Made by a program: the position numbers and the translations under genes
Part shown: positions 5,571 through 63,410 of the stretch, piece after piece
Numbering within the stretch: the stretch's first letter is position 1
Layout of the letters: each line of letters opens with the position of its first letter
Notes under the pieces: generated by a model
The model's input: only the letters and a program-made list of their open reading frames with translations
What the model was told of the DNA's origin: nothing
Databases searched by the model: none
UHGV virus genome: UHGV-0167633
Strand: one strand, 5' to 3'
DNA: 64,000 nucleotides
From: a virus

Positions 5571-5926
5571 AGCACCACGTCCTGTGTGATAGTTATACCC
5601 CTGATACGAATGGATATTTTCAACTTATCAAAAGCATCTCCCTCGGCTACAGACAAGCCAGAAATCGGTATGTCAGGTAAATCTACCGTCAGTTTTTGCA
5701 ACAGCATTGCCTCAACCGCAATTTGAACATGCGACAAGTTGGTCGGTTCGTGTTTAAACTGCGGTAAAACATTGCCCCATGACGGATCTCCGTATACCTC
5801 ACCCTGATAAGTGTTTAGCCACTCATATAAACGAGCGCCCCAGGCCTCCTCCTGGGACTCATACGTTTTTACGCCGGATAACTCCAGCGTCAGCAAAGGA
5901 TCAATTTCGTTATTGTTGGCCATCAA
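5567..5926 (-). CDS. small baseplate assembly protein
   Basis: 119-aa ORF between Sit and baseplate J-like gene, 4-nt overlaps both sides. Confidence 0.4.
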   Translation of the reverse strand: MMANNNEIDPLLTLELSGVKTYESQEEAWGARLYEWLNTYQGEVYGDPSWGNVLPQFKHEPTNLSHVQIAVEAMLLQKLTVDLPDIPISGLSVAEGDAFDKLKISIRIRGITITQDVVL

Positions 5927-8900
5927 TCAACTCTCGCGTAGTCATTCATCAACGGATCATCAATTGACAGTGGTACCGTGCGCATAACGCCCGGCTGAGG
6001 CGTGCTGACCTTTACGACAGTTCCCTGGCCTTTCGCCGAGTCTTTGGTGTGCTCTTCAATCCTGGCGAGCAATGAGGTCATCTGCGCAAACAGCCGCTTC
6101 GTTTCACCATCAAGTGAAACGGTATTATCAGCCAACTGCATTGTCGGCTTAGCACCGGAACCGCCAAGGTCACTAATAACCTGCCCGTCTATCTGCATAC
6201 GACCGGTTGGTTGCTGCAAATCGTTGGCGACAGTCGTCATCTGGGACGTGGAAGCTGGTTGAGGAGAATTATTTGAGCGCATTCCCCGGGCATTAATGAG
6301 TTTGTCATACAGTCCATCAATCCCCATTTGTGCGCCGAGCTGGTCAAAGTAACTTGAGTTGTTGGCCACCGGACGTGCCTCTTCAACTGGCATAGGTGTA
6401 TCAACATACACATTGCCAGCAGCCGTTGCGGTCCCCTTCCCTCGTGCACGTTCTTCGAGCGTTCCCTGAACGACTTCCCGACGCATACCCCGGCCATTCA
6501 TGAATTTGTTGACCAGATCGTTAACACCAACAGCATTGCCAATTTTGTCTACCAGACCGCCTTTCTCAAACGGGCTATCACCAGGGGTAAACGCCAGGCC
6601 AGTAGACTGATCGATAACAGCGTTATCAGGTATCTTTTCGTGAATTGCTGGTGCGCTATGATCTACCTTAGAGCCATAAACGGCACCATTATTGAGCATC
6701 TGCTGATACCCTCTGACACGAGTAACATATTCGCCGGTACCGGCGACTACTCTCCCCTTATCAACATGCCCCATACCAGCATGATAGGCAGCTATTGCAC
6801 GACCCTGATCACCGTTATAACGGTTCATCAGCATACTTAGGTATCTGGCGGCACCATCAGCTGCTTTTCGTGTATCCATGGCATCAGCATCGCTGAGTCC
6901 AAGATCCTCCCTTGTACCTTTAGTGATCTGAAAAGCCCCAAGGGCAGATGAAAGTTTGTTCCCGTTTTTGTCTACTGGATTTCCAGTTCTCTGGCCTGCA
7001 CTAGACTCTGCGGATGCAACTGCTGACAGAATCCCTTTTTCAAGCCCATACTTACGTTCCAGCTCATCAAAATAATCGGCATTGTCAGAAATCCATTGGT
7101 ATCCGGCAGCATTTAATTTTGGCAAAGAAACATCCTTGCCATTGTTAAATCGACGTTTATCTATCTCATATGCACTTAATGCTTCCTCCTTACCTGTAGC
7201 AGACTGGCCCAAGGCAGCATCAATTGTTTGTGCTGCTTTATTTCCTGTTTCTACGGCATTTGCATTGATAATCTGATTAGCAGTTTCTTTAACTGTTTTA
7301 TTGCTATCTTTCGCCATATCCAGGGCCGCATTTATCACGCGGGCAGCAATATTAGTCTGTTTGGCATCGGATTCAGCTTTAGAATCAGATGTCCCCTGCT
7401 GGCTATTAACCGGAGCTTTTAACTCTGGAGTGATTTCTTTCGCATTAGCCTCGCCGATCGGATTGGGTATTTTTGATACAATCATTGCCGCAGGGGTATT
7501 TTTAACGGCATCAACCGCTGCATCTAATGCTTTACCTGGTAAATTTTTAACCCCATCCCAAATATTACTAGCTGCCTCTTTAATGTGTTTCCCTGGGTTC
7601 TTAATGAAATCAATTGCACTATCAATTGCATCACTGAAAACCTGTTTCAGGTTATCGACAGTAAAGAAGTCTTTGATGGCATCCAGCTTTTCAAGCAGCT
7701 TATTAGATGTATCGCTAAACCATGCTGAAACAGCATCACCAATCTTTGCTGTGTAATCATCGAACTTGGTAGAAATGGTGTCGCCAAGGTTAGAAATATA
7801 TGTTTCTAAGTTGGTAATCCCACTATCAATGGCCTGGGCAATACTTTCCGTCGAAAATGATTGCAACATATTGCCGATATCCTCAAATCCAAGTGATTTG
7901 AGAACATCACCAATAGCACTGCTAATACCAGATACCAGTCCCCCCAAATCAAGAACATTGGCTAACGTATAAGCGGCTTTTTGCTGGAATGATGGATCTT
8001 GTCCTGATTTAAGCCCAAACGCTCGACGTTGCGCTTCTGTATCATTCCAACCGGTTACCGCATCATAAATACCTCCAGCCACTGTGCCGACTAGGGGAAT
8101 TGCGCGTAACGCCCCTTTACCAACTGCCTTTAATCCAAGTTTACCTGCTGCCCGGGCAGCCAAATCTCCGTCTTCATGGGCGAGAGTCTTCTTGCCACCA
8201 CCGCGTAGCATTCCTACAAGTTTCTTTGCCCCCAGAGCGCCAAAAGCGAGTGCTCCAGCTTTTTTCAGCATGCCACGCCCCATTAACAACGACGCGACGC
8301 CACCGGCCCCCTTCCCTAACAGGCTAAATAATTTGGACAGCAAGCCGCCCTTCTTTTTCCCGGTGTTTTTGGCTATCTGATCAAGGGCGCTGAGAATCTT
8401 GTCATTGCCCTCTTTAATTTCGCTGGTCTGATCCTGAAGTTCCTGAACCGTCCGTTTTTGGGTGTTAACCTGAACGACATCGGCACTATTTTGCGATTTA
8501 CGCCTAAAAAAACCTTTTCTACGGCTGTTATCGTCATTGCCACGAATCACATCGGCAATAGACTTTCTGGCACCATTAAGCGATCCACCAACTTCTTTTG
8601 ATATCCCGCCAAGCTCCTTCCCTGCGGCCCACAATGGACCAGCAACGGCATAACCTAACGCATCGACGGCGCGAGTCTCTGAAGGGTTACCTATGCCTTC
8701 AGCTACTTTTGACAGTTTTTTTAATAAACCTGATTCAGCATTTAGACGCTCATCATCCTCTTTGCGCCTGGCCTTTTCAGCACGTTCAGCACGGGCATCT
8801 TCCGCTGCGGCCTTACTCCCTGGCTTTCCAATAAAACGACCACGCGCATCGCGTTGGTTTTGGCTTTTTTGCGCACCGCCTTTTTGACCGAACATTTCGC

Positions 8901-10896: not shown

Positions 10897-11504
<608 letters not shown>

Positions 11505-11617
11505 TTGTCATTTGTTACCGGTCAGTCTACACATTTCAGATACTACGTTAAAACAACTCAAGTGCTTCAAGTAGCACATCGTCATCAACACCCAACCCGA
11601 AGATGCGGAGATAAAAT

Positions 11618-12691
11618 TCAAGCCTTAAGAGGCTTTGTGTATGTTCGTGTAATCCAACCAGTAATAAACTCATCCCCTGATTTAACCTGCACGTAAAGCC
11701 ATTGACGATCTTTCTTATCTAAAATAGCAACAATTGTGTTTTTGCCAATGCATTCAATCACTTCACTATTTAAAGAAGGGCCGACATGCAACCTTACGTT
11801 ATCACCTGTTATAGCTCTAAAATTATTAAGATCCTCCCACTGAATATCTTTATTTTCTTGTGTTAGCTTTTGCTTAGATATTGGCTTATCCTCATTTAGA
11901 GATAGAAGATATGATTCCATCTTGTAAATTTGCGATAATGTCTTTTCTTTTGCATAATCAGTTATAGCGCCAAGCACCACTTGATAAAAAATCCACAGAA
12001 GGAAGATCTGAATAGGAGAAGGAAGCGCCTTAAATGAATCAAAAAACGTCGAACTAGATTTATTAAATCCTTTGTTTTGATGCTCACTTTCGGTATGCGC
12101 TGATTTTATAGAATCATTAGCATAAGCCTGCGCGATAGTAACAAGCCCAAGCTCTACTACTTGCTCTAATAATACACTTCTTGTTTTATTATACTGCTTT
12201 ATTACTTCTTTAATATCTTTGCTTATCTTAATTTTGTAATTTATATTAGAGTGTAATTCTTTAAATACCTCCTCCATATTATTTAAGCCAGCTATCTTAT
12301 TAATGGCTTCTGAGTGTTTTCGTAACGGCATAGCCATTTCAGCTTGATTTTTAATTATTTGAATATGCTCATTTGCATCACTGGGAAAAGCCGCCTGATA
12401 CTGTTTCTGTAAAAATACCATTTGTTCACGAAACTGGTGTGCAATTCTCGTAACTTTTGGTAAAGACTCAAGTTCTTTTCGAAAACAATCATTAATTAAT
12501 TCTTGTTTTTTAACTGTTCCAAACTGTTTAACTAAACTCTTGTAAATATATTCTGAATTTAATAAACCACTTATCTTTTTATGCCTCACTCCTTTAATTT
12601 CATTTAAATAATCATAAAAGGCAGTGCCTTCAGCTTTATTATTAGAGTTAAGCGAAATGTGTTTAATATCCTTCACTTTATTCACCGTCAT
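11618..12691 (-). CDS. membrane protein with C-terminal SH3b-like domain (AT-rich accessory gene)
   Basis: 357-aa ORF; one predicted TM segment (IQIFLLWIFYQVVLGAI); C-terminal beta-rich segment resembling bacterial SH3; strongly AT-rich relative to flanks. Confidence 0.5.
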   Translation of the reverse strand: MTVNKVKDIKHISLNSNNKAEGTAFYDYLNEIKGVRHKKISGLLNSEYIYKSLVKQFGTVKKQELINDCFRKELESLPKVTRIAHQFREQMVFLQKQYQAAFPSDANEHIQIIKNQAEMAMPLRKHSEAINKIAGLNNMEEVFKELHSNINYKIKISKDIKEVIKQYNKTRSVLLEQVVELGLVTIAQAYANDSIKSAHTESEHQNKGFNKSSSTFFDSFKALPSPIQIFLLWIFYQVVLGAITDYAKEKTLSQIYKMESYLLSLNEDKPISKQKLTQENKDIQWEDLNNFRAITGDNVRLHVGPSLNSEVIECIGKNTIVAILDKKDRQWLYVQVKSGDEFITGWITRTYTKPLKA

Positions 12692-13184
12692 CTTGTTTTA
12701 AACACCCGTCATTTTTAGCTTCTGTATAAATACTGGAAATACCATCCAGAGTGAATGATGTGATTCGACTCGAACCGATATATACATCTATGTTTTTTTC
12801 ATTTGTAGATGACACTGCCTTCCAAAATGAATACCATTCCCTACGATTAGGAGCAGTGTTTTGCGTGCCAATATTAAAACTATCCGGGCCAACAATTAAA
12901 GTAATTACATCTGCTTTACGTGATATTGTGTCGCGTGTAGAAAAATCGGCATTCTCTTTTCCTCCGCTTACATACAAATTTCTTCCAGCGATATGATCTT
13001 CTGAACCTTCCCTTGCTCCAGCATCACAAGAAAAGTTAATTGTGTAACCATCGTCATTGGTTGCAGAGATTTCTCTCCACCCTTGCTCACCTCCTACCGT
13101 CCAAACGGTAGAACCTGCCATTGCTGATAATGGCAGAAAAGAGGACATTAATAAAAAGCTATACAATGACTTATACAATTTCAT
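12678..13184 (-). CDS. secreted protein with signal peptide (AT-rich accessory gene)
   Basis: 168-aa ORF; N-terminal signal peptide (MKLYKSLYSFLLMSSFLPLSAMA); overlaps downstream gene start by 14 nt. Confidence 0.5.
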   Translation of the reverse strand: MKLYKSLYSFLLMSSFLPLSAMAGSTVWTVGGEQGWREISATNDDGYTINFSCDAGAREGSEDHIAGRNLYVSGGKENADFSTRDTISRKADVITLIVGPDSFNIGTQNTAPNRREWYSFWKAVSSTNEKNIDVYIGSSRITSFTLDGISSIYTEAKNDGCLKQDDGE

Positions 13185-13272
13185 ATTTTTATCCTTTTGT
13201 TTTTAGATATTATAGGCATAGTCCATATTGTTAGATCCACTATGCCCAGAGAATTTAATATTATTTATTAAA

Positions 13273-13791
13273 TTATGGGGCTACACCCGGCCCCCTAGCT
13301 CGTTCTTCAAGCGTACCCTGTACGTTTTGATGGCGCATTCCTGGGGCATTTCTTATTGAGTCAATGCCATTTCTTCCAACATCTTCTTTATTAACGGCAT
13401 TGCTCGCCACCAGCACACCCCAGCTAGGGATAGCAAAATCAGGAGCGGTTTCGCATGCCTTTACCATATAATCGAAAGTGCTTCGATTGATCTCGTTTGC
13501 GTCGGGATTTAATAGGCGAGAATATTGATATTTAGCATTTTCGTTGGTTGCGACTTTATATAGTTCTTGCTGCACCATCGCTTCAGAAAGTTTAAGACGT
13601 TTCATATCTGACAGTAACTTCTTGCGCATGGATTCGTCTTGACTGACAGCAAAGCCGTAAACGTGCCCAAGGTATTTCGTATAATCGGTACAAATCTCCT
13701 TCACGCTTGATGCTGCATTAACAGTCCCAGCCATAAATAATAACGGTAGTAATAGTTTTCTCATTATAACCTCACCTGCCTTATAACTCAT
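13273..13791 (-). CDS. periplasmic protein carrying a Sit-like C-terminal motif (possible superinfection-exclusion protein)
   Basis: 172-aa ORF with signal peptide; last ~27 aa (NAPGMRHQNVQGTLEERARGPGVAP) closely match an internal Sit segment (NGRGMRREVVQGTLEERARGKGTA); occupies the position of the P1 sim locus. Confidence 0.5.
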   Translation of the reverse strand: MSYKAGEVIMRKLLLPLLFMAGTVNAASSVKEICTDYTKYLGHVYGFAVSQDESMRKKLLSDMKRLKLSEAMVQQELYKVATNENAKYQYSRLLNPDANEINRSTFDYMVKACETAPDFAIPSWGVLVASNAVNKEDVGRNGIDSIRNAPGMRHQNVQGTLEERARGPGVAP

Positions 13792-13860
13792 TTAGGGTAC
13801 ATATTTTCGCCTTTAAAAAAAAGAGGTTATTAGATCCAGTTGTGTATTTACTAATCAGAT

Positions 13861-13877
13861 AATGCTCTAATAGATTT
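13861..13877 (+). promoter_or_regulatory. C1-repressor-type operator upstream of immI (Op51-like)
   Basis: aATGCTCTAATAgATTT, 15/17 match to the ATTGCTCTAATAAATTT motif recurring in this window. Confidence 0.5.
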
Positions 13878-14044
13878 GTATTTTTAAGTCGCGAATGCTA
13901 TCTTTTCGCATCATATTGACCTTTTAATCGTTCAGGCTTATAGTTCCGCCGTCGTAGCAAATTCTGCGACCGGGTTTAGCAGCCTGAATGATTGTGCGGA
14001 CAGCCGCAGATATCCGATATTGCGGTATTTTTGTGTCCGTAAAA

Positions 14045-52138: not shown

Positions 52139-52864
52139 ATGAAAGGCGAAGTGAAAGAGCGCGGCATGATTTTCAACGATGAGATGGTCCGGGCCATCCT
52201 CGAAGGAAGGAAAACGCAGACGCGGCGGATAATGAAAAATCAGCCTGCGGAAGTTGGTCCAGAAGCACCGGTGATGGTTAGAAAAATTGGTGCAGGTTTT
52301 CAGTGGTACGGGGCTGATGGTGTAAGCAGTGTTTTCAATTGCCCCTTTGGTATCGTCGGCGATCGAATTTGGGTTCGTGAAACATGGGCGATATTAGGCA
52401 ATGAAGATGGTTGCAGTGTGGACTGGAACGACAACCTTTGTCGTGGTGATGAGAAGAACGCAGCAAGGATTTATCGGGCCAGTTGTGAGCAAAAGCCTGG
52501 TGATTACGGTTTATGGTCGATACCCGATGATGCCGACTGGAAACCTCACACTGTGAATGAAAAGTTTGATGGTGGGTGGCGTCCATCAATTCACATGCCG
52601 CGATGGGCATCACGCATCCTGGTGGAAATTACCAACGTGCGCGTTGAGCGGTTGAACGATATCAGCGAATGCGATGCAAGGGATGAGGGCGTTCCGCCTG
52701 CTGGAAGTTTGCTTCCTGATCACCCGGGAACATTCCTTACTCCCAAGGGGGATTTCGCAATGGCCAAGGTTGCGTTCCAGCGCCTGTGGGAATCCATCTA
52801 CGGCGAAGAAAGCTGGAGTGCTAATCCCTGGGTTTGGGTAATCGAGTTTGAGCGTATTCAGTAG
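52139..52864 (+). CDS. conserved phage protein (ASCH-like?)
   Basis: Start chosen at ATG 52139 (RBS AGGGGGA); RKTQTRR...WVRETW...NPWVWVIEFERI pattern. Confidence 0.4.
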   Translation: MKGEVKERGMIFNDEMVRAILEGRKTQTRRIMKNQPAEVGPEAPVMVRKIGAGFQWYGADGVSSVFNCPFGIVGDRIWVRETWAILGNEDGCSVDWNDNLCRGDEKNAARIYRASCEQKPGDYGLWSIPDDADWKPHTVNEKFDGGWRPSIHMPRWASRILVEITNVRVERLNDISECDARDEGVPPAGSLLPDHPGTFLTPKGDFAMAKVAFQRLWESIYGEESWSANPWVWVIEFERIQ

Positions 52865-52873
52865 GGCGAGCGT

Positions 52874-53095
52874 ATGCAATCAGTTATTTGTGAGGAAGTC
52901 GGCCTGAATAAAGCATCCCCAGCAGAGTTAAGAGCAAGTCTCGAAATGGCGCATAGCCTTGCTCAAATTGGTGTCAGGTTTGTACCAATTCCAGTTGAAA
53001 CAGATGAAGAATTTCACAGGTTAGCGGCATCGGCAGCACAAAAGCTGGAAATCATGGCAGCGAAAGTAGAGAAAGCTGAAGGAGCGACAAAATGA
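52874..53095 (+). CDS. hypothetical protein
   Basis: 73-aa ORF. Confidence 0.3.
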   Translation: MQSVICEEVGLNKASPAELRASLEMAHSLAQIGVRFVPIPVETDEEFHRLAASAAQKLEIMAAKVEKAEGATK

Positions 53096-53307
53096 GCAAG
53101 CCAACCGACGAAGAAATAGTTCGGGTGTTGGAAGAACACGGGCGCTGTATGACTTACGTCGTGACCAACTGGCTTAGGGATAAATATCGCACACTCAAAA
53201 CGGCATACGTTTTGCGTCGTCTAAAGAAACTGGAGTTCGACGGGAAAGTAAAGCGCGTTAACAGTTCTTATATAAGACAAATTTGCTGGGAGGCATCCAG
53301 TGAATAA
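53092..53307 (+). CDS. hypothetical small protein
   Basis: 71-aa ORF; 4-nt overlaps both sides. Confidence 0.3.
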   Translation: MSKPTDEEIVRVLEEHGRCMTYVVTNWLRDKYRTLKTAYVLRRLKKLEFDGKVKRVNSSYIRQICWEASSE

Positions 53308-53944
53308 CCGCTTTTACATGATGTGCTTGCGTGAAACTGTGGGTAATAACGCCTCATTCCATTGCCATAACGGCAATGGTTACAGTTCTGATATCGATCG
53401 CGCTCATGTTTACACGCTGGAAGCAGCCCAAAAAGCCTGGAATTGTGGACGAGATATCGATCAGCCTGTTTGCGCTGATAGCGTGGATGCAATGGCTGTG
53501 TGGCACGTTGATTGCCAGTACATCCCTACAGAAAGCCTGATTGAGTCAGATTGCACTGCGTATGTGGCCTACAAAAAAGGTAGCTGGAACGGCAACGATG
53601 TTTACTGGCTTCAACACGGTGGATTGCCAACAGATGACTTCAGTAAAGCGACCATCTTTAGCGTCGCCAACAAAAACGAACCAGGAATAGTTTGGTTGCC
53701 ATTTTCCATTGCTAATGCAGCAAAGCGCCGGACGTTCAATATCAATAACTTTAACCGCAGAACAATGGTTCAGGGCGCAGGTTTGGTCATGCCTGACTGG
53801 TTGAAAAAGCAAAACAGAAGAAAGAAGTCGCGAAGCGGGAAGGTGCGTTGGAATTGTCCGCATTGCGGAAAAATAACCTGGCAGTACAGCCCATATGATT
53901 TTGAAGGCTGTAGTGATTACAACTGTGAAGGATGGCGAGAATGA
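53300..53944 (+). CDS. Cys-rich hypothetical protein
   Basis: 214-aa ORF; C-terminal CPHCG...C..YNCEGW. Confidence 0.4.
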   Translation: MNNRFYMMCLRETVGNNASFHCHNGNGYSSDIDRAHVYTLEAAQKAWNCGRDIDQPVCADSVDAMAVWHVDCQYIPTESLIESDCTAYVAYKKGSWNGNDVYWLQHGGLPTDDFSKATIFSVANKNEPGIVWLPFSIANAAKRRTFNINNFNRRTMVQGAGLVMPDWLKKQNRRKKSRSGKVRWNCPHCGKITWQYSPYDFEGCSDYNCEGWRE

Positions 53945-54594
53945 CAATTGACTATCAGGTACTGCGTGAGGCGGCAGAAAAGGCAACACCAGACGAATGG
54001 GTCGCATTTATTTCGACGGATACTGGTACTTATGCGGTGCACACGCCCGGTGATGAACGATGTGAAGACGTTATCAAATGGACCGGCTTTGATGGACAGA
54101 AAAATGCAGAGAACAACGCTCGTTATGTTGCCGCGTTCAACCCAAAGGTTGCACTGGAGCTGCTTGGTGAAATTAAGCGCCTGGAGGACACAAATATTGA
54201 TGCTATATGTCGAATTGCAGAGCTTGAGACTAATCTCGCGGCGCTGGTGGCGGAGAACGCTGGGCTGAAACACGCAATGGCCGTAACTCTTGAGCATGTG
54301 TCGGTCACGGATGCAGGGCAGGCCGGAGTTGCTGCAATGATTATCAACGATGCCCTGCACCACAGCGAAACTCCAGCTACCGATGCTTTCCTGTCTGAAG
54401 TGCGGGCGCAGGGGGTGGATGCTGCTATAGAAGCTGCAAAAAATCTGGTGGCCCAAGAATATGAGTATAAGGATTTCAAAGCGGCGCAGAGTGATTGCTG
54501 TATGCACCCTGGTTCAGACCTGGTAGGGAAGGTTGAAATGACTGAGTGGTTAGTTGACTTTGCTGCCCAGCTTCGCAAAGGAGGCAACCAGTGA
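53932..54594 (+). CDS. Ead/Ea22-like protein
   Basis: 220-aa ORF; N-terminus IDYQVLREAAEKATPDEWVAF; coiled coil. Confidence 0.5.
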   Translation: MARMTIDYQVLREAAEKATPDEWVAFISTDTGTYAVHTPGDERCEDVIKWTGFDGQKNAENNARYVAAFNPKVALELLGEIKRLEDTNIDAICRIAELETNLAALVAENAGLKHAMAVTLEHVSVTDAGQAGVAAMIINDALHHSETPATDAFLSEVRAQGVDAAIEAAKNLVAQEYEYKDFKAAQSDCCMHPGSDLVGKVEMTEWLVDFAAQLRKGGNQ

Positions 54595-55109
54595 GCGAAA
54601 TTAATTACCAGGCACTGCGTGAGGCGGCGGAACGTGCAATTCCAGCAATGGAACGCCTGTTAATGTTGCCAGCTGATGATGATTTGTTAAGTGAACAGGA
54701 ACTTAAAGATTACGGTGTGGATATTGATGCGCTCAACGCCTTCAAATTTCTGGCCGGACCAGAAACCGTGCTGGCACTACTGGATGAACGGGAAAGGAAC
54801 CAGCAATACATCAAACGCCGCGACCAGGAGAACGAGGATATTGCGCTAACGGTAGGGAAGCTGCGCGTTGAGCTTGAAGCAGCAAAATCAAAACTCAACG
54901 AGCAGCGTGAATATTACGAGGGAGTAATCGCGGATGGAAGTAAGCGCATAGCAGAACTGGAGGAGCGGGAAATACTGCTCCCGGAACGTAGCAGCATGCT
55001 TCATCGAACAGATTTTCACGATGATTACCAAACGGTAATGGCATACAAAGTTTCTGAAGTCATCGCTGCAATCCGCACCGCAGGCATTCGCATCAAAGGA
55101 GGTGAGTAA
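54591..55109 (+). CDS. Ead/Ea22-like coiled-coil protein
   Basis: 172-aa ORF; N-terminus EINYQALREAAERA. Confidence 0.45.
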   Translation: MSEINYQALREAAERAIPAMERLLMLPADDDLLSEQELKDYGVDIDALNAFKFLAGPETVLALLDERERNQQYIKRRDQENEDIALTVGKLRVELEAAKSKLNEQREYYEGVIADGSKRIAELEEREILLPERSSMLHRTDFHDDYQTVMAYKVSEVIAAIRTAGIRIKGGE

Positions 55110-55285
55110 TGCGTGTGGCATGTATCGGCTTGTTACCGTACCCGACTCGTTTTTGGGCTTCTGCGCTAATTGCAAAGCCGTATGTCCTGATGGCTGACAA
55201 CATCATCCCGGCACCAAAGCGCCGCCATACCGGTATTGCAGCGGCACGACGAGCAGCAAAGAGACGCAGGAGAGCAAAGCGATGA
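55109..55285 (+). CDS. small basic protein (58 aa)
   Basis: ATG overlaps previous stop; Arg-rich C-terminus; below track length cutoff. Confidence 0.3.
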   Translation: MRVACIGLLPYPTRFWASALIAKPYVLMADNIIPAPKRRHTGIAAARRAAKRRRRAKR

Positions 55286-55458
55286 AAAACCGTAAGGCAA
55301 AACGACTTTTTTTACAGCGACCTGTGCGTGTGGTGGAGCTGGTTATTAGCAACCATAAGATAGCGGTACTCCATCCATTTGGTCAGGTGGCTTTTGCCGC
55401 AAAGCGTAAGCCTACTGCGTCACAGAACAGGCGGAAGAAAGGGTACGCTGTAAGATGA
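55282..55458 (+). CDS. small basic protein, MKNRKAK paralog A (58 aa)
   Basis: ATGA overlap; paralogous to next ORF (MKNRKAK N-terminus, KP.A.QNR C-terminus). Confidence 0.35.
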   Translation: MKNRKAKRLFLQRPVRVVELVISNHKIAVLHPFGQVAFAAKRKPTASQNRRKKGYAVR

Positions 55459-55643
55459 AAAACCGTAAAGCAAAGATTCTGTTAGTTCGTAGAAACGCTC
55501 CTGGCGTCTGGCAGTGGGTGAGACTCAGCAACCGACGGATGGGGTTGATGAAATATTACGGGATGATGGATTGTGGTTTTTGCAAAAAGCCCAGCGCGGC
55601 GCAAAACCGCTGGAAAAACCACTTGCGCACTAAAGGAGAGTGA
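55455..55643 (+). CDS. small basic protein, MKNRKAK paralog B (62 aa)
   Basis: ORF-track ORF; ATGA overlap with paralog A. Confidence 0.35.
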   Translation: MKNRKAKILLVRRNAPGVWQWVRLSNRRMGLMKYYGMMDCGFCKKPSAAQNRWKNHLRTKGE

Positions 55644-55644
55644 T

Positions 55645-56160
55645 ATGGCGTTAACACACCGCGAACTCTGTCAGATTGCGTATAAGTTCCTTAAGCGCAA
55701 CGGGTTCAAGGTTTGTTTTCATGACCGCTTTATAGCTGTAACCAGTACCGGAGAACAGCCAGATGCTATGGGATTCAGAAATTCAGCATCATGCCTGATA
55801 GAGGCGAAGTGTTCTCGTGCTGACTTGTTGGCAGATAGAAAAAAGCGTTTTCGTAAAAATCCATCTCTTGGAATGGGCGACTGGCGATTCTTTATTAGTG
55901 AGCCGGGAATTATTTCAGTTGAGGATTTACCTCCCGGCTGGGGATTACTTCACGTTGTTAACGGAAGAGTACGGAAAGTACATGGATGGCCCAAGGGGAA
56001 TTGCTGTTGGGGTAACCCTGAAGATAAACCTTTTATTGGGAATAAGCAGGTTGAATGCGATTACATGTTATCTGCATTAAGGCGCATGGAGTTGAGAGGG
56101 CACCTTAATGAAATATATGACGGTGTAATTGTTAATAAGAAAGAAGGAAACGCGGCATGA
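55645..56160 (+). CDS. PD-(D/E)xK nuclease-like protein (hypothetical)
   Basis: Start ATG 55645 with RBS AAGGAGAG; D...EAK motif (PDAMGF...CLIEAKCSRADL). Confidence 0.4.
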   Translation: MALTHRELCQIAYKFLKRNGFKVCFHDRFIAVTSTGEQPDAMGFRNSASCLIEAKCSRADLLADRKKRFRKNPSLGMGDWRFFISEPGIISVEDLPPGWGLLHVVNGRVRKVHGWPKGNCCWGNPEDKPFIGNKQVECDYMLSALRRMELRGHLNEIYDGVIVNKKEGNAA

Positions 56161-56873
56161 TCACTATTACCAAAGAGCGACTACTGACAATCAAGCAGTG
56201 GCGCGAAACATACGGACCTGGTAGCAACGTTGTACTGCCAGCAGAAGAAGCGGAAGAACTGGCACGAATTGCGCTGGCATCGCTGGAAGCAGATCCAGTT
56301 GCTTATATTTTCAAACATCCGGCCGGGAAATTATTCTGGGCTTTAACGGATGAAAGCAATAAAGAGCAAGCGGACGTTATTCCTGTTTATGCTGCCGCGC
56401 CTGCGTCGGTTGTGCCGGATAATGCATCAGAGCCTCTTGCTTATGCTTACAAAGAGCTTACGCCTGAGATTATGCGCAACCATTTAGCTGTATTCGAGCG
56501 ATATGGAATAGCCCCAAACGATAGCTCTACCACAATTCAGGCACTGCGAATCGCGCTGGATGGCATAGAGCGGAGCGACGCCATGCTTCATGGTGCCGAA
56601 CCTGTAAGCCAAACTTACAAGTTGAACCAGCTATCGGGCAACTCTCCGGCAACTCCGGATGGTTGGATAAGCTGTAGTGAGCGAATGCCGAATACCAAAA
56701 CAGCCGTTCTTGTTGCCGTGGAGTTTGACAGGAAAGGTGACTGGCGAATGAAATGGGCTACTTACATCCCCGGGCATCCTGACGCTAATGATGGGTGGAT
56801 AATTCCTGGTGCGTCGTGGAAACCGTCACACTGGATGCCGCTACCAGAACCGCCGCAGGAGGTGAATCAATGA
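56157..56873 (+). CDS. DUF551-like phage protein
   Basis: 238-aa ORF; C-terminal W-rich segment (CSERMP...WIIPGASWKPSHWMPLPEPP). Confidence 0.45.
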   Translation: MITITKERLLTIKQWRETYGPGSNVVLPAEEAEELARIALASLEADPVAYIFKHPAGKLFWALTDESNKEQADVIPVYAAAPASVVPDNASEPLAYAYKELTPEIMRNHLAVFERYGIAPNDSSTTIQALRIALDGIERSDAMLHGAEPVSQTYKLNQLSGNSPATPDGWISCSERMPNTKTAVLVAVEFDRKGDWRMKWATYIPGHPDANDGWIIPGASWKPSHWMPLPEPPQEVNQ

Positions 56874-56937
56874 GCTGGCCTGAAGCATTCACCACGGTAG
56901 GAATTGTGATGGCGGCAGCACTGGGTTTGTATTCAAT

Positions 56938-57189
56938 TTGTCGCTGGTGGTAACGATGGGAAAAATAACTTTTGTAGTCGAATTTGAGGATGGCAAAGAG
57001 CCACCTGTTAGCGCCAATCTTGATGTTGCTGGTGGCAGGCTGGTTTCGGTTCTATTTGGTGATTACCGCGACGACTTCTTTCAGCCTGAAGAAGTTGATG
57101 TAGTGCGAGAAGCATTAAACGAGCTAAGTGTTGATAACGATGATGCTCATGCGGAAATCATCAAAAAAATGGAACTGCTAACTCACTAA
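56938..57189 (+). CDS. hypothetical acidic protein
   Basis: 83-aa ORF. Confidence 0.3.
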   Translation: MSLVVTMGKITFVVEFEDGKEPPVSANLDVAGGRLVSVLFGDYRDDFFQPEEVDVVREALNELSVDNDDAHAEIIKKMELLTH

Positions 57190-57237
57190 ATTATCAATTA
57201 TGGTGCTATCACCTACGACACCGAGAGAAAATTTATA

Positions 57238-57360
57238 ATGTCAAAAGTAAATGTTTTGATTTTTTCAGCAATTGTTGGCTTTGGTTTTACTGCCGGAGTG
57301 CAGATTTATATTGCGTGGGAAAAAATCATCAACTACGCATGGAGTTGTTTTATTAAGTGA
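57238..57360 (+). CDS. small membrane peptide (40 aa)
   Basis: MSKVNVLIFSAIVGFGFTAGVQIYIAWEKIINYAWSCFIK; AT-rich; below track cutoff. Confidence 0.3.
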   Translation: MSKVNVLIFSAIVGFGFTAGVQIYIAWEKIINYAWSCFIK

Positions 57361-57367
57361 GGTAAGT

Positions 57368-57661
57368 ATGTGGAGAGGTAATAGTCATGGCAAAAGCCAG
57401 ATGATACTTACCGAATATAAGCTAGACCACAAAACCAATAAATCACGCTCAGTATATTTGCTCCGGCACAATAGCCGCGTAAGAAATACCGTGCTGGAAC
57501 AAAATCTGACAGTTGAAATGGATAATTACGGTGGATTCAAGCCAACAATTTCGCTTGATGATTTTCCTCGTGGTTTAAGCGAAAGAGAAGCAATGCTGAA
57601 ATTAGCAGAATGGCTACAAAGATTAAGCATTGCTATTGAAGATAACTGGTCTGAACCTTAA
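57368..57661 (+). CDS. hypothetical protein (97 aa)
   Basis: ATG 57368 with RBS GAGGT 6 nt upstream; in frame within track ORF 57272..57661. Confidence 0.35.
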   Translation: MWRGNSHGKSQMILTEYKLDHKTNKSRSVYLLRHNSRVRNTVLEQNLTVEMDNYGGFKPTISLDDFPRGLSEREAMLKLAEWLQRLSIAIEDNWSEP

Positions 57662-57667
57662 ATTTAT

Positions 57668-58042
57668 ATGATGACACTAAAACATTTTCTTGACCGCCCA
57701 TTATGGGCGGCAGCCGCAGGCTATGACTTTAATTATATGGATTGCATGTCTTATACTGCCAATGCATACGACCATTCGTTCAGCCTGCTGTTTAATTCTT
57801 TAAGAATATTGCCGGAAACAGAAGTTGGAGAGCTTCATTTATGGATATTGGGCTTTATCGCGGCTGTCGTTGGTATTGCTGTATGGCCTTTTATTTTCTG
57901 GCTGGTGGCTGTTGTAGTGTGGTTTAAGTGCAAGACATACCGGAGAAAGTATTTCTTAGGTGATGGAATGACCGATATTGCCAAAATGAACATTGAAAAA
58001 TGGACTAAGGAATGTGAAAAGAAATGGCGCAAAAAGAAATGA
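57668..58042 (+). CDS. membrane protein with basic C-terminus
   Basis: 124-aa ORF; TM helix LWILGFIAAVVGIAVWPFIFWLVAVVVWF. Confidence 0.4.
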   Translation: MMTLKHFLDRPLWAAAAGYDFNYMDCMSYTANAYDHSFSLLFNSLRILPETEVGELHLWILGFIAAVVGIAVWPFIFWLVAVVVWFKCKTYRRKYFLGDGMTDIAKMNIEKWTKECEKKWRKKK

Positions 58043-58683
58043 CTACTCTAACGACAGCATACTTACAGCAATTGGTATTTTTTGCAGGCGAGGCTACTTG
58101 TCATCCTGACGCAAACTATTTATTGGAATTTGAGAGGTTAGCGTCACCCGGTATCGTTCTGGAACTGGCCCAACAGGTGCTGGCCTTGAGACAAAAAGAG
58201 CAACATGAAAGTAATACGTGTAGATTGAATTTTGAGCAGTGGCTGGAACAGCAACGCGGAAAAATCGATGTGGACTGTGGTTGTGTGTCCACTGAAACAT
58301 TCATGCACTGGCTGCGGGTAGCTTACGAGGCTGGCAACTATCCGGATATTCCGGATAGTTCGGTGCCAGCGCCCGGAAAGGGCGTCACCGGTGAACGTAT
58401 CCGCATTAAGCCGCATGTTTATCGCGAACTGGTTAACCGTCTCCACGATACAGCGATCAAGTGTGCTGGCACTCAGCAATTACGAGAAAGAATTAGCCGT
58501 GTTTTGGGCGACGTTATTACGCCATATCATCATAAACAAGCCGAGAAAAGCGGTCTGGAAAGGTGTCATCTTGAGGCAGCATTAAACATTAAGCCGGGGC
58601 ATACGCTTGGCATTATTGATGCACTGTTGGTTCATAAGATGGCCAGGGCTTTATTGTCGTTGGTAGGGGGCAATGACAACTAG
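58024..58683 (+). CDS. hypothetical protein
   Basis: 219-aa ORF overlapping previous gene by 19 nt. Confidence 0.4.
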   Translation: MAQKEMTTLTTAYLQQLVFFAGEATCHPDANYLLEFERLASPGIVLELAQQVLALRQKEQHESNTCRLNFEQWLEQQRGKIDVDCGCVSTETFMHWLRVAYEAGNYPDIPDSSVPAPGKGVTGERIRIKPHVYRELVNRLHDTAIKCAGTQQLRERISRVLGDVITPYHHKQAEKSGLERCHLEAALNIKPGHTLGIIDALLVHKMARALLSLVGGNDN

Positions 58684-58767
58684 GAAAAAATCGCATTACT
58701 GGTGGCAAAGCCATAACTACTGATACAATATTTCTAGGTTAAAGATCTGGCATTAGGTAGAGATAGC

Positions 58768-59232
58768 ATGTTTCTTCATATCAATCCCGATTGGGCATCA
58801 GCTATTGCGGCATTTGGGTCAGCAATAGCTGCTTTTATTAGTTTGCGCACAAGTAAAAAGCTTGGATTATTCGATAAGGAAAAATTTTATAGTGAAGCAT
58901 TGATAAACTTTGCTGATAGGGCAAATAAAATAGCAACAGGAAAAGCTGGATCAGACTGGGATGTTAATGACGCAAGTAATATAATTCTTTCACTAAATGC
59001 CGCAAAAGAAACTATTGAAAGTGCGCCAAAACCTATTCGAGAGCAACTAAAACAATATTACAAACATAATCTTTGCCATGAGATCATAACCGAATTAGAG
59101 GCTCACTCTCCCCCAGATTCAGTAATTGTAAGAGAACCATCAGAGTATGAAGGCAAGATCATGGGATTGTGGGATGAGATTAAAATATTTCTGGGTTATA
59201 CAGTGGTATCAGAAGCAGACCTTGAAGATTAA
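58768..59232 (+). CDS. AT-rich membrane-anchored protein (accessory gene upstream of phd)
   Basis: 154-aa ORF; N-terminal TM (WASAIAAFGSAIAAFISL); markedly AT-rich relative to flanks. Confidence 0.45.
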   Translation: MFLHINPDWASAIAAFGSAIAAFISLRTSKKLGLFDKEKFYSEALINFADRANKIATGKAGSDWDVNDASNIILSLNAAKETIESAPKPIREQLKQYYKHNLCHEIITELEAHSPPDSVIVREPSEYEGKIMGLWDEIKIFLGYTVVSEADLED

Positions 59233-59343
59233 AGTTTGGTGTGACCACATCATTTCATCAATGATGCCCGAAGTGGGGAGTTTGACGATTGTCCGGTGAT
59301 TTAAGCTGCAAAGTGCTGGTGCTTTATGCTTGTGAAGTTTATA

Positions 59344-59370
59344 ATTGTGTACACATAACGAGTACACGAG
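59344..59370 (+). promoter_or_regulatory. phd-doc operator/promoter palindromes
   Basis: Perfect palindrome TGTGTACACA plus second GTACAC half-site immediately upstream of phd RBS. Confidence 0.5.
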
Positions 59371-59598
59371 GTGTTTATGCAATCCATTAACTTCCGTACC
59401 GCACGCGGCAACCTTAGCGAAGTGCTCAATAATGTTGAAGCAGGGGAAGAGGTTGAAATCACCCGCAGAGGCCGTGAATCAGCCGTAATTGTCAGCAAGG
59501 CCACTTTCGAAGCCTATAAAAAAGCGGCGCTGGATGCCGAATTTGCATCCCTGTTTGACACTCTGGACTCCACTAACAAGGAACTGGTTAACCGATAA
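59371..59598 (+). CDS. phd: Phd antitoxin
   Basis: 75-aa ORF; sequence [34 protein letters not shown]... recognised as P1 Phd; stop overlaps doc start. Confidence 0.9.
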
Positions 59599-59978
59599 TG
59601 AGGCATATATCACCGGAAGAACTTATTGCGCTTCATGATGCGAATATAAGCCGCTACGGCGGCCTGCCGGGCATGTCAGATCCGGGCAGGGCAGAAGCCA
59701 TTATCGGGAGAGTTCAGGCCAGAGTTGCCTACGAAGAGATCACCGACCTTTTCGAAGTCTCCGCCACCTACCTGGTGGCTACAGCGAGAGGGCATATATT
59801 CAATGATGCCAATAAGCGTACCGCGCTAAACAGTGCGCTGTTATTTCTACGCCGTAACGGGGTGCAGGTATTTGACTCCCCTGAACTGGTAGACCTTACC
59901 GTAGGGGCTGCAACTGGTGAAATCGCCGTATCTTCAGTCGCAGAAAAGCTACGTGAACTATATGGTTCCAAGACTTGA
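59598..59978 (+). CDS. doc: Doc toxin (Fic-fold kinase)
   Basis: 126-aa ORF; [22 protein letters not shown]...[19 protein letters not shown] (Fic-like HxFx(D/N)(A/G)NKR motif). Confidence 0.9.
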
Positions 59979-59997
59979 GTAGTGGAGTTACGAAACA

Positions 59998-60273
59998 ATG
60001 TCGAAAATTAACTTAAGAACCGAATCTGCGGTGTTCAAGAATCCTACGTTTAACGTACCCAAACAAACGCTTGATGAACTTGTGCCGATTGATAGCAGGT
60101 TTGTTATTCCTGCGGAACTGGTCGAGAACTGCAAAGAGAAGCAAAAATCGTTAAAGGAAATATCGCCTTCTGAAATCCTCTCCCGCAGTGATGTAAGTAA
60201 GGAGGAGGTTTTAAGGGCGATATCTGCATCTACTGCTACCACGCTACGTAGATTGTATGGTTCTGCGGAGTAG
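59998..60273 (+). CDS. hypothetical protein downstream of doc
   Basis: 91-aa ORF. Confidence 0.35.
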   Translation: MSKINLRTESAVFKNPTFNVPKQTLDELVPIDSRFVIPAELVENCKEKQKSLKEISPSEILSRSDVSKEEVLRAISASTATTLRRLYGSAE

Positions 60274-62069: not shown

Positions 62070-63410
62070 CTGCTCCCCGCCCGGTTGGGCGAGGCTTCCC
62101 ACATCTCAGGCCGCAACCGTCTGTACGACGGATTTACGCTGGCCTCCATGGGCAGAGACGACGAGTCCCGCCGCCTTTAGTTCCAGTATCCCTTTTTGCC
62201 GGATGTTGAGAGCCGCATTGATATCGCGGTCATGCTCTGCTTCACATTCAGGGCATCGCCAGATGCGTTTATGAAGCGGCATTTCCGGCATTTTGTAACC
62301 ACAACAATGGCACGTTTTCGAACTGGCAAACCACTGGTCGAGTTTTACCAGGTGAACGCCTTTTTCCGCTGCCTTGTACTCCAGCTTTGTGATGAAGCTA
62401 TGCCAGCCTGCATCACCTATTGCTCTTGCCAGATTGTGGTTTTTCATCATGTTGGCTGTTTTCAGCGTCTCGACAATTACCGCTTGGTTTTCGTCAACAA
62501 TTGTACGAGAAAGTTTATGTTGAAAATCAGCACGGGCATTCGCTACCCGTTCGTGTATGGCCGCAAGACGGATTCTGGCCTTTTTACGATTCGCGCTTCC
62601 CTTTTGCTTGCGGGATAGCGCTTTTTGTTTGCGTCGCAGATTACGGCTGGCATTGATGAGATGGCGGGGATTCGCAATTTTTGCCCGGTCAGACCTGATG
62701 GCATAGTGCTCAAGTCCCATATCCACACCAGTAATCTTTTCTTCCTCCAGATACGCAGGTTTCGCTGGTGTGGGAATACCGTCTTCACAAAGGATGGATG
62801 CGTAGTATTTCCCGGTGGCACTGCGAGTGATTGTTATGCTCGTCACTTTTCCCGTCATTACACGGTGTATACGCGCTTCTATCGGTGCCAGCTTAGGAAT
62901 TTTGATGGCATTCTCCAGTACTTTAATCCCGACACAATGGTAGCTCGATTGCTTCCCATGTTTACGTTTAAACGTCGGGAACCGGGCTTTCAGCTTCGGA
63001 TTAAAAAAGTTGGAAAACGCCACATCAAGATTAATCACCGCCTGTTGCAATGCCATTGAATCAAATTCTTTAAGCCAGGCATACTTACGGGACTTCTTCG
63101 CCACAGACAACAACGGTTTTAAATCTTTACGCGGACTTAAATTCACTCCGTGTCGCTGGTAAGCGTGTTTTTTGATGTGAAGAGCTTTGTTGTACGCAAA
63201 ACGCACGGCGCCGAACTGGGCGTTGAGATACTCAGCCTGTTTAGTGGTTGGATAGATGCGTACTTTTGTCGCTCTTAACATAGTCACCGCTCATTGATAC
63301 AGGTTTTTATGCTAACACCGTAATGATTTTTTTTTAAAGCCCTGTGGGCTTTCCCGCCTTTCCTCCCCGCCCGCATTGGGCGAGGGTTCTCGGCGGTTGT
63401 TTGCTGATTG
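62065..63410 (-). mobile_element. IS200/IS605-family element carrying tnpB only
   Basis: tnpB flanked by related imperfect-palindrome ends CTCCCCGCCCGGTTGGGCGAGGCTTCCC (62073-62100) and CTCCCCGCCCGCATTGGGCGAGGGTTCT (63363-63390); boundaries approximate; no tnpA in window. Confidence 0.65.
62106..63287 (-). CDS. tnpB: TnpB (RuvC-like RNA-guided nuclease, OMEGA type)
   Basis: 393-aa ORF; N-terminal MLRATKVRIYPT, RuvC-like GVDMGL, C-terminal zinc finger CHCCG...RCPECEAEHDRDINAALNI. Confidence 0.85.
   Translation of the reverse strand: MTMLRATKVRIYPTTKQAEYLNAQFGAVRFAYNKALHIKKHAYQRHGVNLSPRKDLKPLLSVAKKSRKYAWLKEFDSMALQQAVINLDVAFSNFFNPKLKARFPTFKRKHGKQSSYHCVGIKVLENAIKIPKLAPIEARIHRVMTGKVTSITITRSATGKYYASILCEDGIPTPAKPAYLEEEKITGVDMGLEHYAIRSDRAKIANPRHLINASRNLRRKQKALSRKQKGSANRKKARIRLAAIHERVANARADFQHKLSRTIVDENQAVIVETLKTANMMKNHNLARAIGDAGWHSFITKLEYKAAEKGVHLVKLDQWFASSKTCHCCGYKMPEMPLHKRIWRCPECEAEHDRDINAALNIRQKGILELKAAGLVVSAHGGQRKSVVQTVAA

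Follow-up and report, generated by a model that had tools for sequence, protein, structure and literature searches.

A mosaic of putative early accessory genes upstream of phd-doc in a P1-like phage-plasmid

Comparative analysis of a 64,000-nt window from the virus genome UHGV-0167633, a P1-like phage-plasmid, revealed that the five small open reading frames (ORFs) immediately upstream of the phd-doc addiction module form a two-layer mosaic within the hypervariable region between pap and phd. In the interpretation that we favor with moderate confidence, they are dispensable accessory genes of the early lytic phase and not one system. The first layer comprises orf40, orf97, orf124, and orf219, embedded in a co-directional array at about 52.1–58.7 kb that probably represents the common form of the region in the P1 family, while in the second layer the AT-rich orf154 replaced pmgV-upfMNO-hot-lxr-humD by recombination. 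The first-pass annotation had described the five genes as a single cassette and this description did not hold: orf40 to orf219 constitute a common block, orf154 is a separate and rare replacement, and the three families represented by orf97, orf124, and orf154 never co-occurred outside P1-like elements. A single multi-gene functional system was rejected on the basis of this lack of joint occurrence elsewhere. The result is of little weight, since a known hypervariable region is re-described and the "cassette" becomes a mosaic of uncharacterized, putatively early genes.

All five ORFs that had been predicted upstream of phd-doc were present on the + strand, each exactly where it had been placed. 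They encode the 40-aa hydrophobic peptide orf40 (57238–57360; phrog_5525), the soluble 97-aa protein orf97 (57368–57661; phrog_1258), the 124-aa membrane protein orf124 (57668–58042; phrog_2638), the soluble 219-aa protein orf219 (58024–58683), which is the full-length form of P1 PmgU, and the 154-aa product of the rare cargo gene orf154 (58768–59232; phrog_1779). The start of orf97 is an internal ATG with a GAGG Shine-Dalgarno sequence, nested in a longer ORF beginning with TTG, and the intergenic gaps across the five-gene region were 48, 7, 6, -19, and 84 nt. The description of these products as small membrane proteins applies to orf40, orf124, and orf154, which have hydrophobic segments, but not to orf97 and orf219, which have none. 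The proposed AT-rich run was likewise present only in part. The five-gene region had a GC content of 41.4% compared to a mean of 47.3% for same-size windows (47.4% for the whole window), ranking in the lowest 3.5% of such windows, and its AT-richness was confined to two patches at 57100–58050 (38.6% GC) and 58665–59234 (37.5% GC), whereas the GC-normal stretch separating them (58050–58664, 48.1% GC) covers most of orf219. Scans of the five ORFs and their neighbors with Pfam, NCBIfam, and PADLOC gave no significant match, in agreement with the earlier statement that recognizable domains are absent; however, every one of the five had PHROG matches, all to families of unknown function, and the C-terminal 106 aa of orf219 match PmgU.

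The homology of orf219 to PmgU extends over the whole of the P1 protein (orf219 aa 114–219 versus PmgU aa 1–106; 89.6% identity, E = 1e-67), and the end of P1 PmgT arises from the orf219 gene being read out of frame. The first gene of the operon (52139–52864, + strand) is the intact counterpart of the N-terminal part of PmgT (99.6% identity over PmgT aa 1–232), with its P1 match stopping at window position 52834. A comparison with P1 by blastn, together with Pfam, delimited a 5.5-kb block on the + strand (52835–58322) that is absent from reference P1 and contains DUF1382, two Ead/Ea22 genes, DUF551, orf83, orf40, orf97, orf124, and the 5′ half of orf219. The chimeric pmgT and truncated pmgU of reference P1 appear to be scars of a 5.5-kb deletion: P1 carries an out-of-frame fusion and a truncated gene, whereas in the window both genes are intact and 5.5 kb apart. 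The "putative morphogenetic function" assigned to PmgT and PmgU in P1 is a map-based label alone, and both genes scored as non-essential. The intact forms of pmgT and pmgU are found here and in most P1-like elements, which matters when P1 serves as the annotation standard. The first-pass annotation had also considered that the ORFs might be conserved P1 genes with established roles, and this applies only weakly: pmgU, to which orf219 is homologous, is a P1 gene, but one for which no role is established.

The two layers differed in frequency, with the orf40-orf97-orf124 block identified in about 266 of 5426 complete Escherichia coli genomes (pdcB in 657) versus 10 of the 5426 for orf154 DNA, always on plasmids of about 95–100 kb. 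An alignment of five P1-like elements was collinear up to the left recombination junction of the hypervariable slot (58664–58665), beyond which at least three different downstream sequences followed, and many database matches also stop at this point. Breakpoints mapped against P1, RCS47, and CP063718 placed the left junction of the orf154 replacement at this common position, the 3′ end of orf219, and its right junction inside humD. P1 has humD directly before phd and the earlier suggestion that humD is replaced was borne out, as only a 70-nt 3′ remnant persists (59235–59304, + strand; 92–95% identical to humD genes). This remnant corresponds to approximately the last 22 codons, has a 1-nt indel near its 5′ end, and translates to ...INDARSGEFDDCPVI followed by a stop codon, which is the HumD C-terminus. 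Around orf154, no bounding repeats of the IS or att type were found; the short matches detected there are of a length that often arises by chance. Downstream of the remnant, the Pphd promoter is conserved (59317–59345, + strand; one mismatch compared to the annotated P1 Pphd), and phd-doc thus stays its own unit (59377–59978, + strand; phd 59377–59598 and doc 59598–59978) with Phd and Doc 98.6 and 96% identical to the P1 proteins, respectively. A role of orf154 or the other ORFs as an extra phd-doc component was rejected because Pphd is intact 3′ of orf154 and the upstream neighbors of phd-doc vary; in addition, orf154 relatives were not seen beside toxin-antitoxin genes. The locus corresponds to region 8 (pmgT to humD), a published hypervariable region of P1-like phage-plasmids (PMC9603915), and the P1 genes from pmgT to doc were all non-essential in a CRISPRi screen with the exception of upfM, which was not in the screen (PMC10695390). 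Lytic growth of P1 does not require the region, and the view of these genes as accessory cargo is supported by these findings and by the displacement of humD.

Upstream of the array lies a C1 operator (51943–51959, + strand; ATTGCTCTAATAAATAT), the equivalent of OpmgT/Op88, that overlaps the PpmgT promoters. The site has one mismatch to the operator consensus. Over the operator and PpmgT promoter-leader region, identity to both P1 and P7 is about 99%, and in these phages the site is annotated as OpmgT with P1pmgT and P2pmgT (P1) and as "Op(hea), predicted to regulate the hea operon" (P7). Together with flanks that are collinear with P1, this identity places the genes in the pmgT ("hea") operon of region 8. 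The operator/PpmgT site was the sole recognized control signal upstream of the + strand array, and the five genes are co-directional and downstream of it. A crude scan of the + strand at 52.0–59.3 kb gave two weak terminator-like matches, both inside genes, and co-transcription over about 7 kb is suggested by this absence of predicted terminators. No LexA box was found in 50–64 kb and no late-promoter -22 box in 52–59.4 kb. Transcription from C1-repressed PpmgT would leave the array silent in the lysogen and switch it on early after induction or infection. The presence of relatives in co-directional early operons of lambdoid and N15-like phages, and of one phage without annotated lysogeny genes, also points to expression during lytic growth and not in the lysogen. 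This phage, Proteus phage Isfahan, has both orf97-like and orf124-like genes along with its own genes for a DNA polymerase, a primase, and enzymes of nucleotide metabolism. The first 50 of its 54.8 kb contain no annotated integrase or repressor, although annotation alone cannot prove virulence, and the Proteus phage matches are distant (31–38% identity, E about 1e-6).

The orf154 product has a weak Ala-rich N-terminal segment (Kyte-Doolittle 1.49), predicted as a membrane anchor and kept in 18 of 19 family members (1.5–2.5), followed by a predicted all-helical domain (AF2 pLDDT 85). A word-indexed protein search returned its own cluster alone, and relatives emerged via an exhaustive HMMER search, with 21 representatives among 1.84 billion proteins. 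The family occurs in lambdoid nin or pL regions beside DUF551, Ead/Ea22, and theta (Hot) homologs. A Pfam scan of 19 members gave scattered single matches only, the alignment profile had no match among PDB sequences, and the best Foldseek match in BFVD had an E-value of 0.31, with no specific fold match obtained. An unlikely alternative for this gene is that it is a moron with a promoter of its own that is active in the lysogen, and that its product is an inner-membrane-anchored superinfection-exclusion or abortive-infection protein, preventing the entry of DNA or detecting infection at the membrane. Consistent with such a role, orf154 is AT-rich (37.5% GC), rare, apparently a recent acquisition adjoining the humD scar, and its conserved hydrophobic anchor is followed by basic residues. 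An extended -10 promoter-like site (58702–58729, + strand; GTGGCA, 16 nt, TG-n-TACAAT in a consensus scan) lies 40 nt 5′ of the gene, and one relative, in the lambdoid nin region of phage PhiR26_1, adjoins the defense gene PD-lambda-1 and has large intergenic gaps on either side, a moron-like setting. A literature search on PhiR26/PhiR5 produced nothing bearing on this relative. However, promoter-like sites in the region were rarer than in shuffled sequence (6 versus 12.0) so that the candidate site is no evidence of function, no terminator was detected 3′ of orf154, and most relatives are packed in early operons with gaps of 40–110 nt upstream and about 65 nt downstream. In addition, orf154 had no match in PADLOC, Pfam, or NCBIfam and no fold match to viral or solved proteins. 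That orf154, which in a small P1-like lineage took the place of the SOS module (hot, lxr, humD) beside phd-doc, founds a rare inner-membrane-anchored helical family with a single-gene superinfection-exclusion or defense function is also quite unlikely.

For the five genes as a whole, the earlier proposal of abortive infection or exclusion was unsupported. A scan of the five ORFs, together with three neighbors upstream, against PADLOC-DB 2.0 gave no match at E ≤ 1. The proteins of the region showed no significant similarity in sequence or fold to solved or viral proteins, nor was such similarity found to characterized exclusion proteins. The genes are furthermore downstream of a C1-repressed promoter and have relatives in early operons. 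The slot was also considered as a defense hotspot and this was rejected, as eight alternative cargo proteins of other P1-like elements had no PADLOC match at E ≤ 0.01.

Within the first layer, comparison with diverged P1-like alleles revealed purifying selection on orf97 (pN/pS 0.05–0.29), orf124 (0.12–0.63), and orf219 (0.09–0.25). The coding status of orf40 is weakly supported: its pN/pS was 0.42–0.64 with few changes behind the figure, the ORF was intact in every copy examined including alleles down to 77.5% aa identity, it matches phrog_5525 with E = 1e-24, and it carries the RefSeq annotation WP_000049042.1 and is likewise annotated in SJ46. Its product has one hydrophobic segment (Kyte-Doolittle 19-residue mean of 1.8). 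The orf97 product is predicted to fold into an antiparallel sheet of four strands followed by a helix at the C-terminus; its alignment profile had no match among PDB sequences and its relatives reside in lambdoid nin or pL regions beside Ead/Ea22 and include N15 gp44/45 and phiKO2 Gp43. In orf124, a conserved 55-aa N-terminal domain precedes a 31-residue hydrophobic block at aa 56–86 (Kyte-Doolittle 2.6) and a Lys/Arg-rich tail, with H6, C26, C88, and C116 invariant. Its relatives were identified in the early operon of N15-like elements between an RNase_T exonuclease and Dam, in Yersinia phage P840 after an exonuclease gene, and in Isfahan between exonuclease and primase genes.

The single long hydrophobic block and highly basic C-terminus of orf124 could also suit a toxin that damages membranes or a holin-like protein that modulates the timing of lysis, perhaps acting with orf40, and weak matches to CptA, a membrane toxin (E = 0.072), and to a holin PHROG (E = 0.049) go in the same direction. 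This is improbable, as neither E-value is significant (13.7 bits for CptA versus a cut-off of 27.3) and both can be explained by hydrophobic composition, conservation is strongest in the soluble N-terminal domain with its invariant His and Cys, the relatives lie in replication and recombination modules and none in lysis cassettes, and the lack of a late-promoter -22 box in the region argues against a lysis role. That the ORFs are functionless passengers, i.e., decaying recombination remnants in a tolerant region, is very improbable despite the dispensability of the region in P1, the scars in reference P1, and the weak constraint on orf40, as pN/pS is well below 1 for orf97, orf124, and orf219 and the orf97, orf124, and orf154 families retain their full length in different genera and types of phage.

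Under the favored reading of dispensable early accessory genes, orf97 may be a small soluble binder, while orf124, orf154, and perhaps orf40 would be tethered to the inner membrane with cytoplasmic domains, orf154 being predicted to be N-out and C-in. The proteins would act on the physiology, DNA metabolism, or defenses of the host to favor phage development and not to protect the lysogen; this suggested host-takeover or counter-defense role is generic and is drawn from genomic context, not homology. Conservation of the orf97 and orf124 families in P1-like, lambdoid, and N15-like early operons as well as in Isfahan makes them reasonable candidates for early-gene functional screens, for instance for counter-defense or host takeover. 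Cargo is exchanged recurrently at the junction marking the 3′ end of pmgU/orf219, which is thus a defined site at which to seek new accessory functions. P1-like phage-plasmids are a clinically widespread group.

Among known systems, P1 Sim and HK97 gp15 are taken here as examples of superinfection-exclusion membrane proteins and morons. The orf154 product resembles such proteins in being small, membrane-anchored, AT-rich in its gene, and rare, but no sequence or fold similarity to them was found, no terminator was detected, and most of its relatives are inside early operons. The sim locus of the window lies elsewhere, at about 11.6–13.9 kb, and is itself variant. Like region 8 of P1, the locus in the window lies between pap and phd-doc, has the conserved C1 operator with its promoter, and shares the left junction, where pmgU ends. 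In contrast to reference P1, the window keeps the 5.5-kb block. Of pmgV, upfM/N/O, hot, lxr, and humD it retains only 70 nt of humD, the LexA box is likewise missing, and orf154 stands in their place.

The early operon of N15/phiKO2-type linear phage-plasmids contains homologs of orf97 (56–66% identity) and orf124 (51–64%) beside exonuclease, Dam, and DinI genes, although the two families are not side by side there. Genes of the first layer were probably drawn from the same pool as these N15-like and the lambdoid exo-xis/nin early accessory genes. Relatives of orf97 and orf154 are found among the exo-xis/nin genes of lambdoid prophages, and the neighbors of these families (Ead/Ea22, DUF551, and NinB-NinG/Q) place both in that gene pool, from which the DUF1382, two Ead/Ea22, and DUF551 genes of the window block are also known. 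Genes of this kind are repressor-controlled, early, and non-essential in lambdoid phages, and the same probably applies in the window, where they differ in being carried by a P1-type myovirus plasmid under C1 instead of CI and N.

Alignment showed the window to be a P1-like (Punavirus) phage-plasmid in which 51000-52834 corresponds to pmgS, pap, and the 5' part of pmgT in P1, 52835-58322 has no P1 counterpart, 58323-58664 matches the pmgT 3' end plus pmgU (94% identity), and 58665-59234 is unique, standing in place of the pmgU end, pmgV, upfM/N/O, hot, lxr, and most of humD. From 59235 onward, the last 70 nt of humD were followed by the phd-doc promoter Pphd, phd (59377-59598), and doc (59598-59978); Phd and Doc shared 98.6 and 96% identity with their P1 counterparts, respectively. 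The humD tail translation (...INDARSGEFDDCPVI, then stop) agreed with the HumD C-terminus and the tail was 92-94% identical to humD genes of other plasmids. The first-pass annotation was correct that P1 carries humD at this position before phd; its tail survives in the window and the gene was ancestrally present in this lineage. Pphd was intact with one mismatch and phd-doc is therefore still a unit of its own. Immediately past doc, the segment in the pdcA position (59968-60219) had no DNA match to P1, RCS47, or CP063718, and a different 91-aa ORF (59998-60273) without Pfam match fills it. Further downstream, a solo InsQ/TnpB RNA-guided-endonuclease-type element (62073-63404; ORF 62106-63287 on the - strand with Pfam OrfB_IS605, Cas12f1-like TNB, and HTH domains) interrupted the interval from lpa to the pacA late promoter; it was absent from P1, RCS47, and CP063718, and just three complete E. 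coli genomes had the same insertion (99.5% identity).

Upstream of phd-doc, five small ORFs named by amino acid length were each found exactly where first annotated, namely orf40 (57238-57360), orf97 (57368-57661), orf124 (57668-58042), orf219 (58024-58683), and orf154 (58768-59232), with gaps within the region of 48, 7, 6, -19, and 84 nt. The GC content of this 1995 nt region was 41.4% versus a mean of 47.3% for equal-size windows (lowest 3.5%). Its description as an AT-rich run of genes held for two patches (57100-58050, 38.6% GC; 58665-59234, 37.5% GC) but not for most of orf219, which lies in the intervening 58050-58664 (48.1% GC). Similarly, "small membrane proteins" fits three of the five since hydropathy gave a single hydrophobic segment in orf40, a strong 31-residue block (aa 56-86) with a Lys/Arg-rich tail after it in orf124, and a weak Ala-rich N-terminal anchor in orf154, but none in orf97 or orf219. 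The interval constitutes "variable region 8" of P1-like phage-plasmids (PMC9603915) and a P1 CRISPRi screen found pmgT through doc all non-essential, upfM not being among the genes tested (PMC10695390), in agreement with the designation of these genes as accessory cargo.

Comparison with P1 (2489-3558) also suggested the origin of the reference gene structure. P1 PmgT aa 1-232 shared 99.6% identity with an intact 241-aa protein of the window (52139-52864) while its last 77 residues were the orf219 homologue read out of frame; PmgU (111 aa, GTG start) corresponded in frame to the last 106 aa of orf219 (89.6% identity); and the two matching P1 segments adjoined with a 2-nt overlap. Reference P1 has therefore lost the 5.5-kb block, pmgT and pmgU being apparent scars of its deletion, and orf219 is the full-length PmgU.

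The five ORFs did not form one cassette as had been proposed, but rather two layers. The order orf83-orf40-orf97-orf124-orf219 (orf83 lying upstream of orf40) was shared with SJ46, pFLI21_1, and several further plasmids, RCS47 carried orf97-orf124-orf219, and in all of them this common block was followed by pmgV and/or hot, lxr, and humD. Of 5426 complete E. coli genomes, 657 had pdcB (at ≥80% coverage), 266 had the orf40-97-124 block, and just 10 had the orf154 segment, in each case on a ~95-100 kb plasmid; PLSDB held eight plasmids with the full arrangement. Five P1-like elements were collinear up to 58664, in the last codons of orf219/pmgU, and then continued into at least three unrelated sequences. 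These frequencies, the common junction, and the absence around orf154 of bounding repeats as a transposon signature identify orf154 as a rare gene that came in by one replacement event where recombination recurs, downstream of the common block. The arrangement is thus already in 8-10 sequenced plasmids, annotated as hypothetical proteins in a region known as hypervariable.

The C1 operator and C1-repressed PpmgT promoters (51943-51959) were ~99% identical to P1 and P7, the P7 site being annotated as operator of the "hea operon", and all genes from the operator to 59232 were on the + strand. The first gene is preceded, downstream of this promoter, by a hydrophobic leader ORF of 28 aa (MNTAFKIIMAAIYFWLFSITFGGIVAHG; 52042-52128) that had nearly identical DNA in P1 and P7 and whose SJ46 counterpart is annotated "membrane protein". 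Within the early block, adjacent ORFs of 58 and 62 aa (55282-55458 and 55455-55643), both starting MKNRKAK, resemble tandem copies of a gene for a basic peptide. A scan found only two + strand terminator-like hairpins, both weak and within genes, and the region contained neither a LexA box nor a P1 late-promoter -22 box, versus nine of the latter elsewhere in the window. We infer no expression of the array in the lysogen and early expression upon C1 inactivation. A promoter-like site with an extended -10 (58702-58729) 40 nt upstream of orf154 was retained only as a candidate as the promoter scan overall gave fewer sites than shuffled sequence. This site, together with composition, rarity, and one neighbourhood, is all that supports orf154 as a moron expressed in the lysogen for exclusion or abortive infection, a reading considered unlikely.

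The suggested exclusion or abortive infection role was without support, as the five ORFs had no significant PADLOC match. The same was true of eight proteins carried as alternative cargo by other P1-like elements, most from the same variable slot between 58664 and Pphd, so there was no sign of the slot being a defence hotspot. That orf154 founds a new family of membrane-anchored exclusion or defence proteins was judged distinctly unlikely. Exclusion functions may be better sought at 11376-13900, which has the lowest GC of the window (0.30-0.36), three - strand ORFs (357, 168, and 172 aa; two with signal-peptide-like N-termini), and an adjoining C1-operator-like site (13861-13877). Its P1 match is limited to 13625-13900, the simA 5' end and promoter, which suggests a sim (superimmunity) locus in a variant form that carries other genes. 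That orf124 is a membrane toxin or a protein like a holin was very unlikely, its profile matches being not significant and its genomic context wrong.

Comparison with diverged alleles from other P1-like plasmids gave pN/pS of 0.05-0.29 for orf97, 0.12-0.63 for orf124, 0.09-0.25 for orf219, and 0.02-0.05 for the upstream 77/83-aa ORF (three most diverged alleles). This purifying selection contradicts the ORFs being functionless passengers, a very improbable reading. For orf40, pN/pS was 0.42-0.64 on only 8-14 substitutions, its frame was unbroken in alleles down to 77.5% amino acid identity, and it is annotated in both RefSeq and the SJ46 record, making its coding status plausible, if weakly supported. 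Copies of orf154 inside P1-like elements were near-identical only, and its coding status rests on a conserved family of full-length relatives.

Somewhat favoured overall was that the five ORFs belong to the C1-controlled operon as dispensable accessory genes for early lytic growth, brought together by recombination from a gene pool in common with lambdoid and N15-like phages. Structure, context, and selection are the observed part of this explanation. Expression would be early in the lytic phase, orf97 may be a small soluble binder and orf124, orf154, and perhaps orf40 membrane-tethered, and they would condition the host during lytic development via DNA metabolism, physiology, or counter-defence.

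The statement that no ORF has a recognisable domain stood for Pfam, NCBIfam, and PADLOC models, none matching significantly, although each was assigned to a PHROG of unknown function. Searching 1.84 billion representative proteins exhaustively with HMMER gave only 21 relatives of orf154 (29-41% identity, mostly 153-173 aa), with the N-terminal hydrophobic helix followed by basic residues in 18 of 19 aligned members. The relatives occurred in lambdoid nin or pL regions adjoining DUF551, Ead/Ea22, and theta (Hot) homologues, and one in phage PhiR26_1 adjoined PD-lambda-1 and Rha with large gaps on both flanks. The orf97 family (>130 clusters across Enterobacteriaceae; strongly conserved C-terminal helix) was found in lambdoid nin or pL regions adjoining Ead/Ea22 and in N15 (gp44/45), phiKO2 (Gp43), P22-like phages, and Proteus Gorganvirus phages. 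The orf97, orf124, and orf154 families did not co-occur among the non-P1 loci retrieved. The window block carries DUF1382, two Ead/Ea22 genes, and DUF551, and draws upon the lambdoid exo-xis/nin pool.

In orf124, a very conserved 55-aa N-terminal domain precedes the hydrophobic block, the C-terminal motif NIEKW..ECEKKW is conserved, and H6, C26, C88, and C116 are invariant. Proteus phage VB_PmiS-Isfahan has DNA polymerase, primase, thymidylate synthase, and dCMP deaminase genes of its own, and no integrase or repressor was annotated within the first 50 of its 54.8 kb. Its orf124-like (5655-6008) and orf97-like (11800-12066) genes are labelled "ribonucleotide reductase large subunit" and "portal protein"; with both proteins only ~90-120 aa long, the public record is almost certainly misannotated here. 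Relatives of orf124 lie directly 3' of an exonuclease gene in N15-like elements, Yersinia phage P840, and Isfahan, positioned between exonuclease and Dam in the N15-like elements and between exonuclease and primase in Isfahan.
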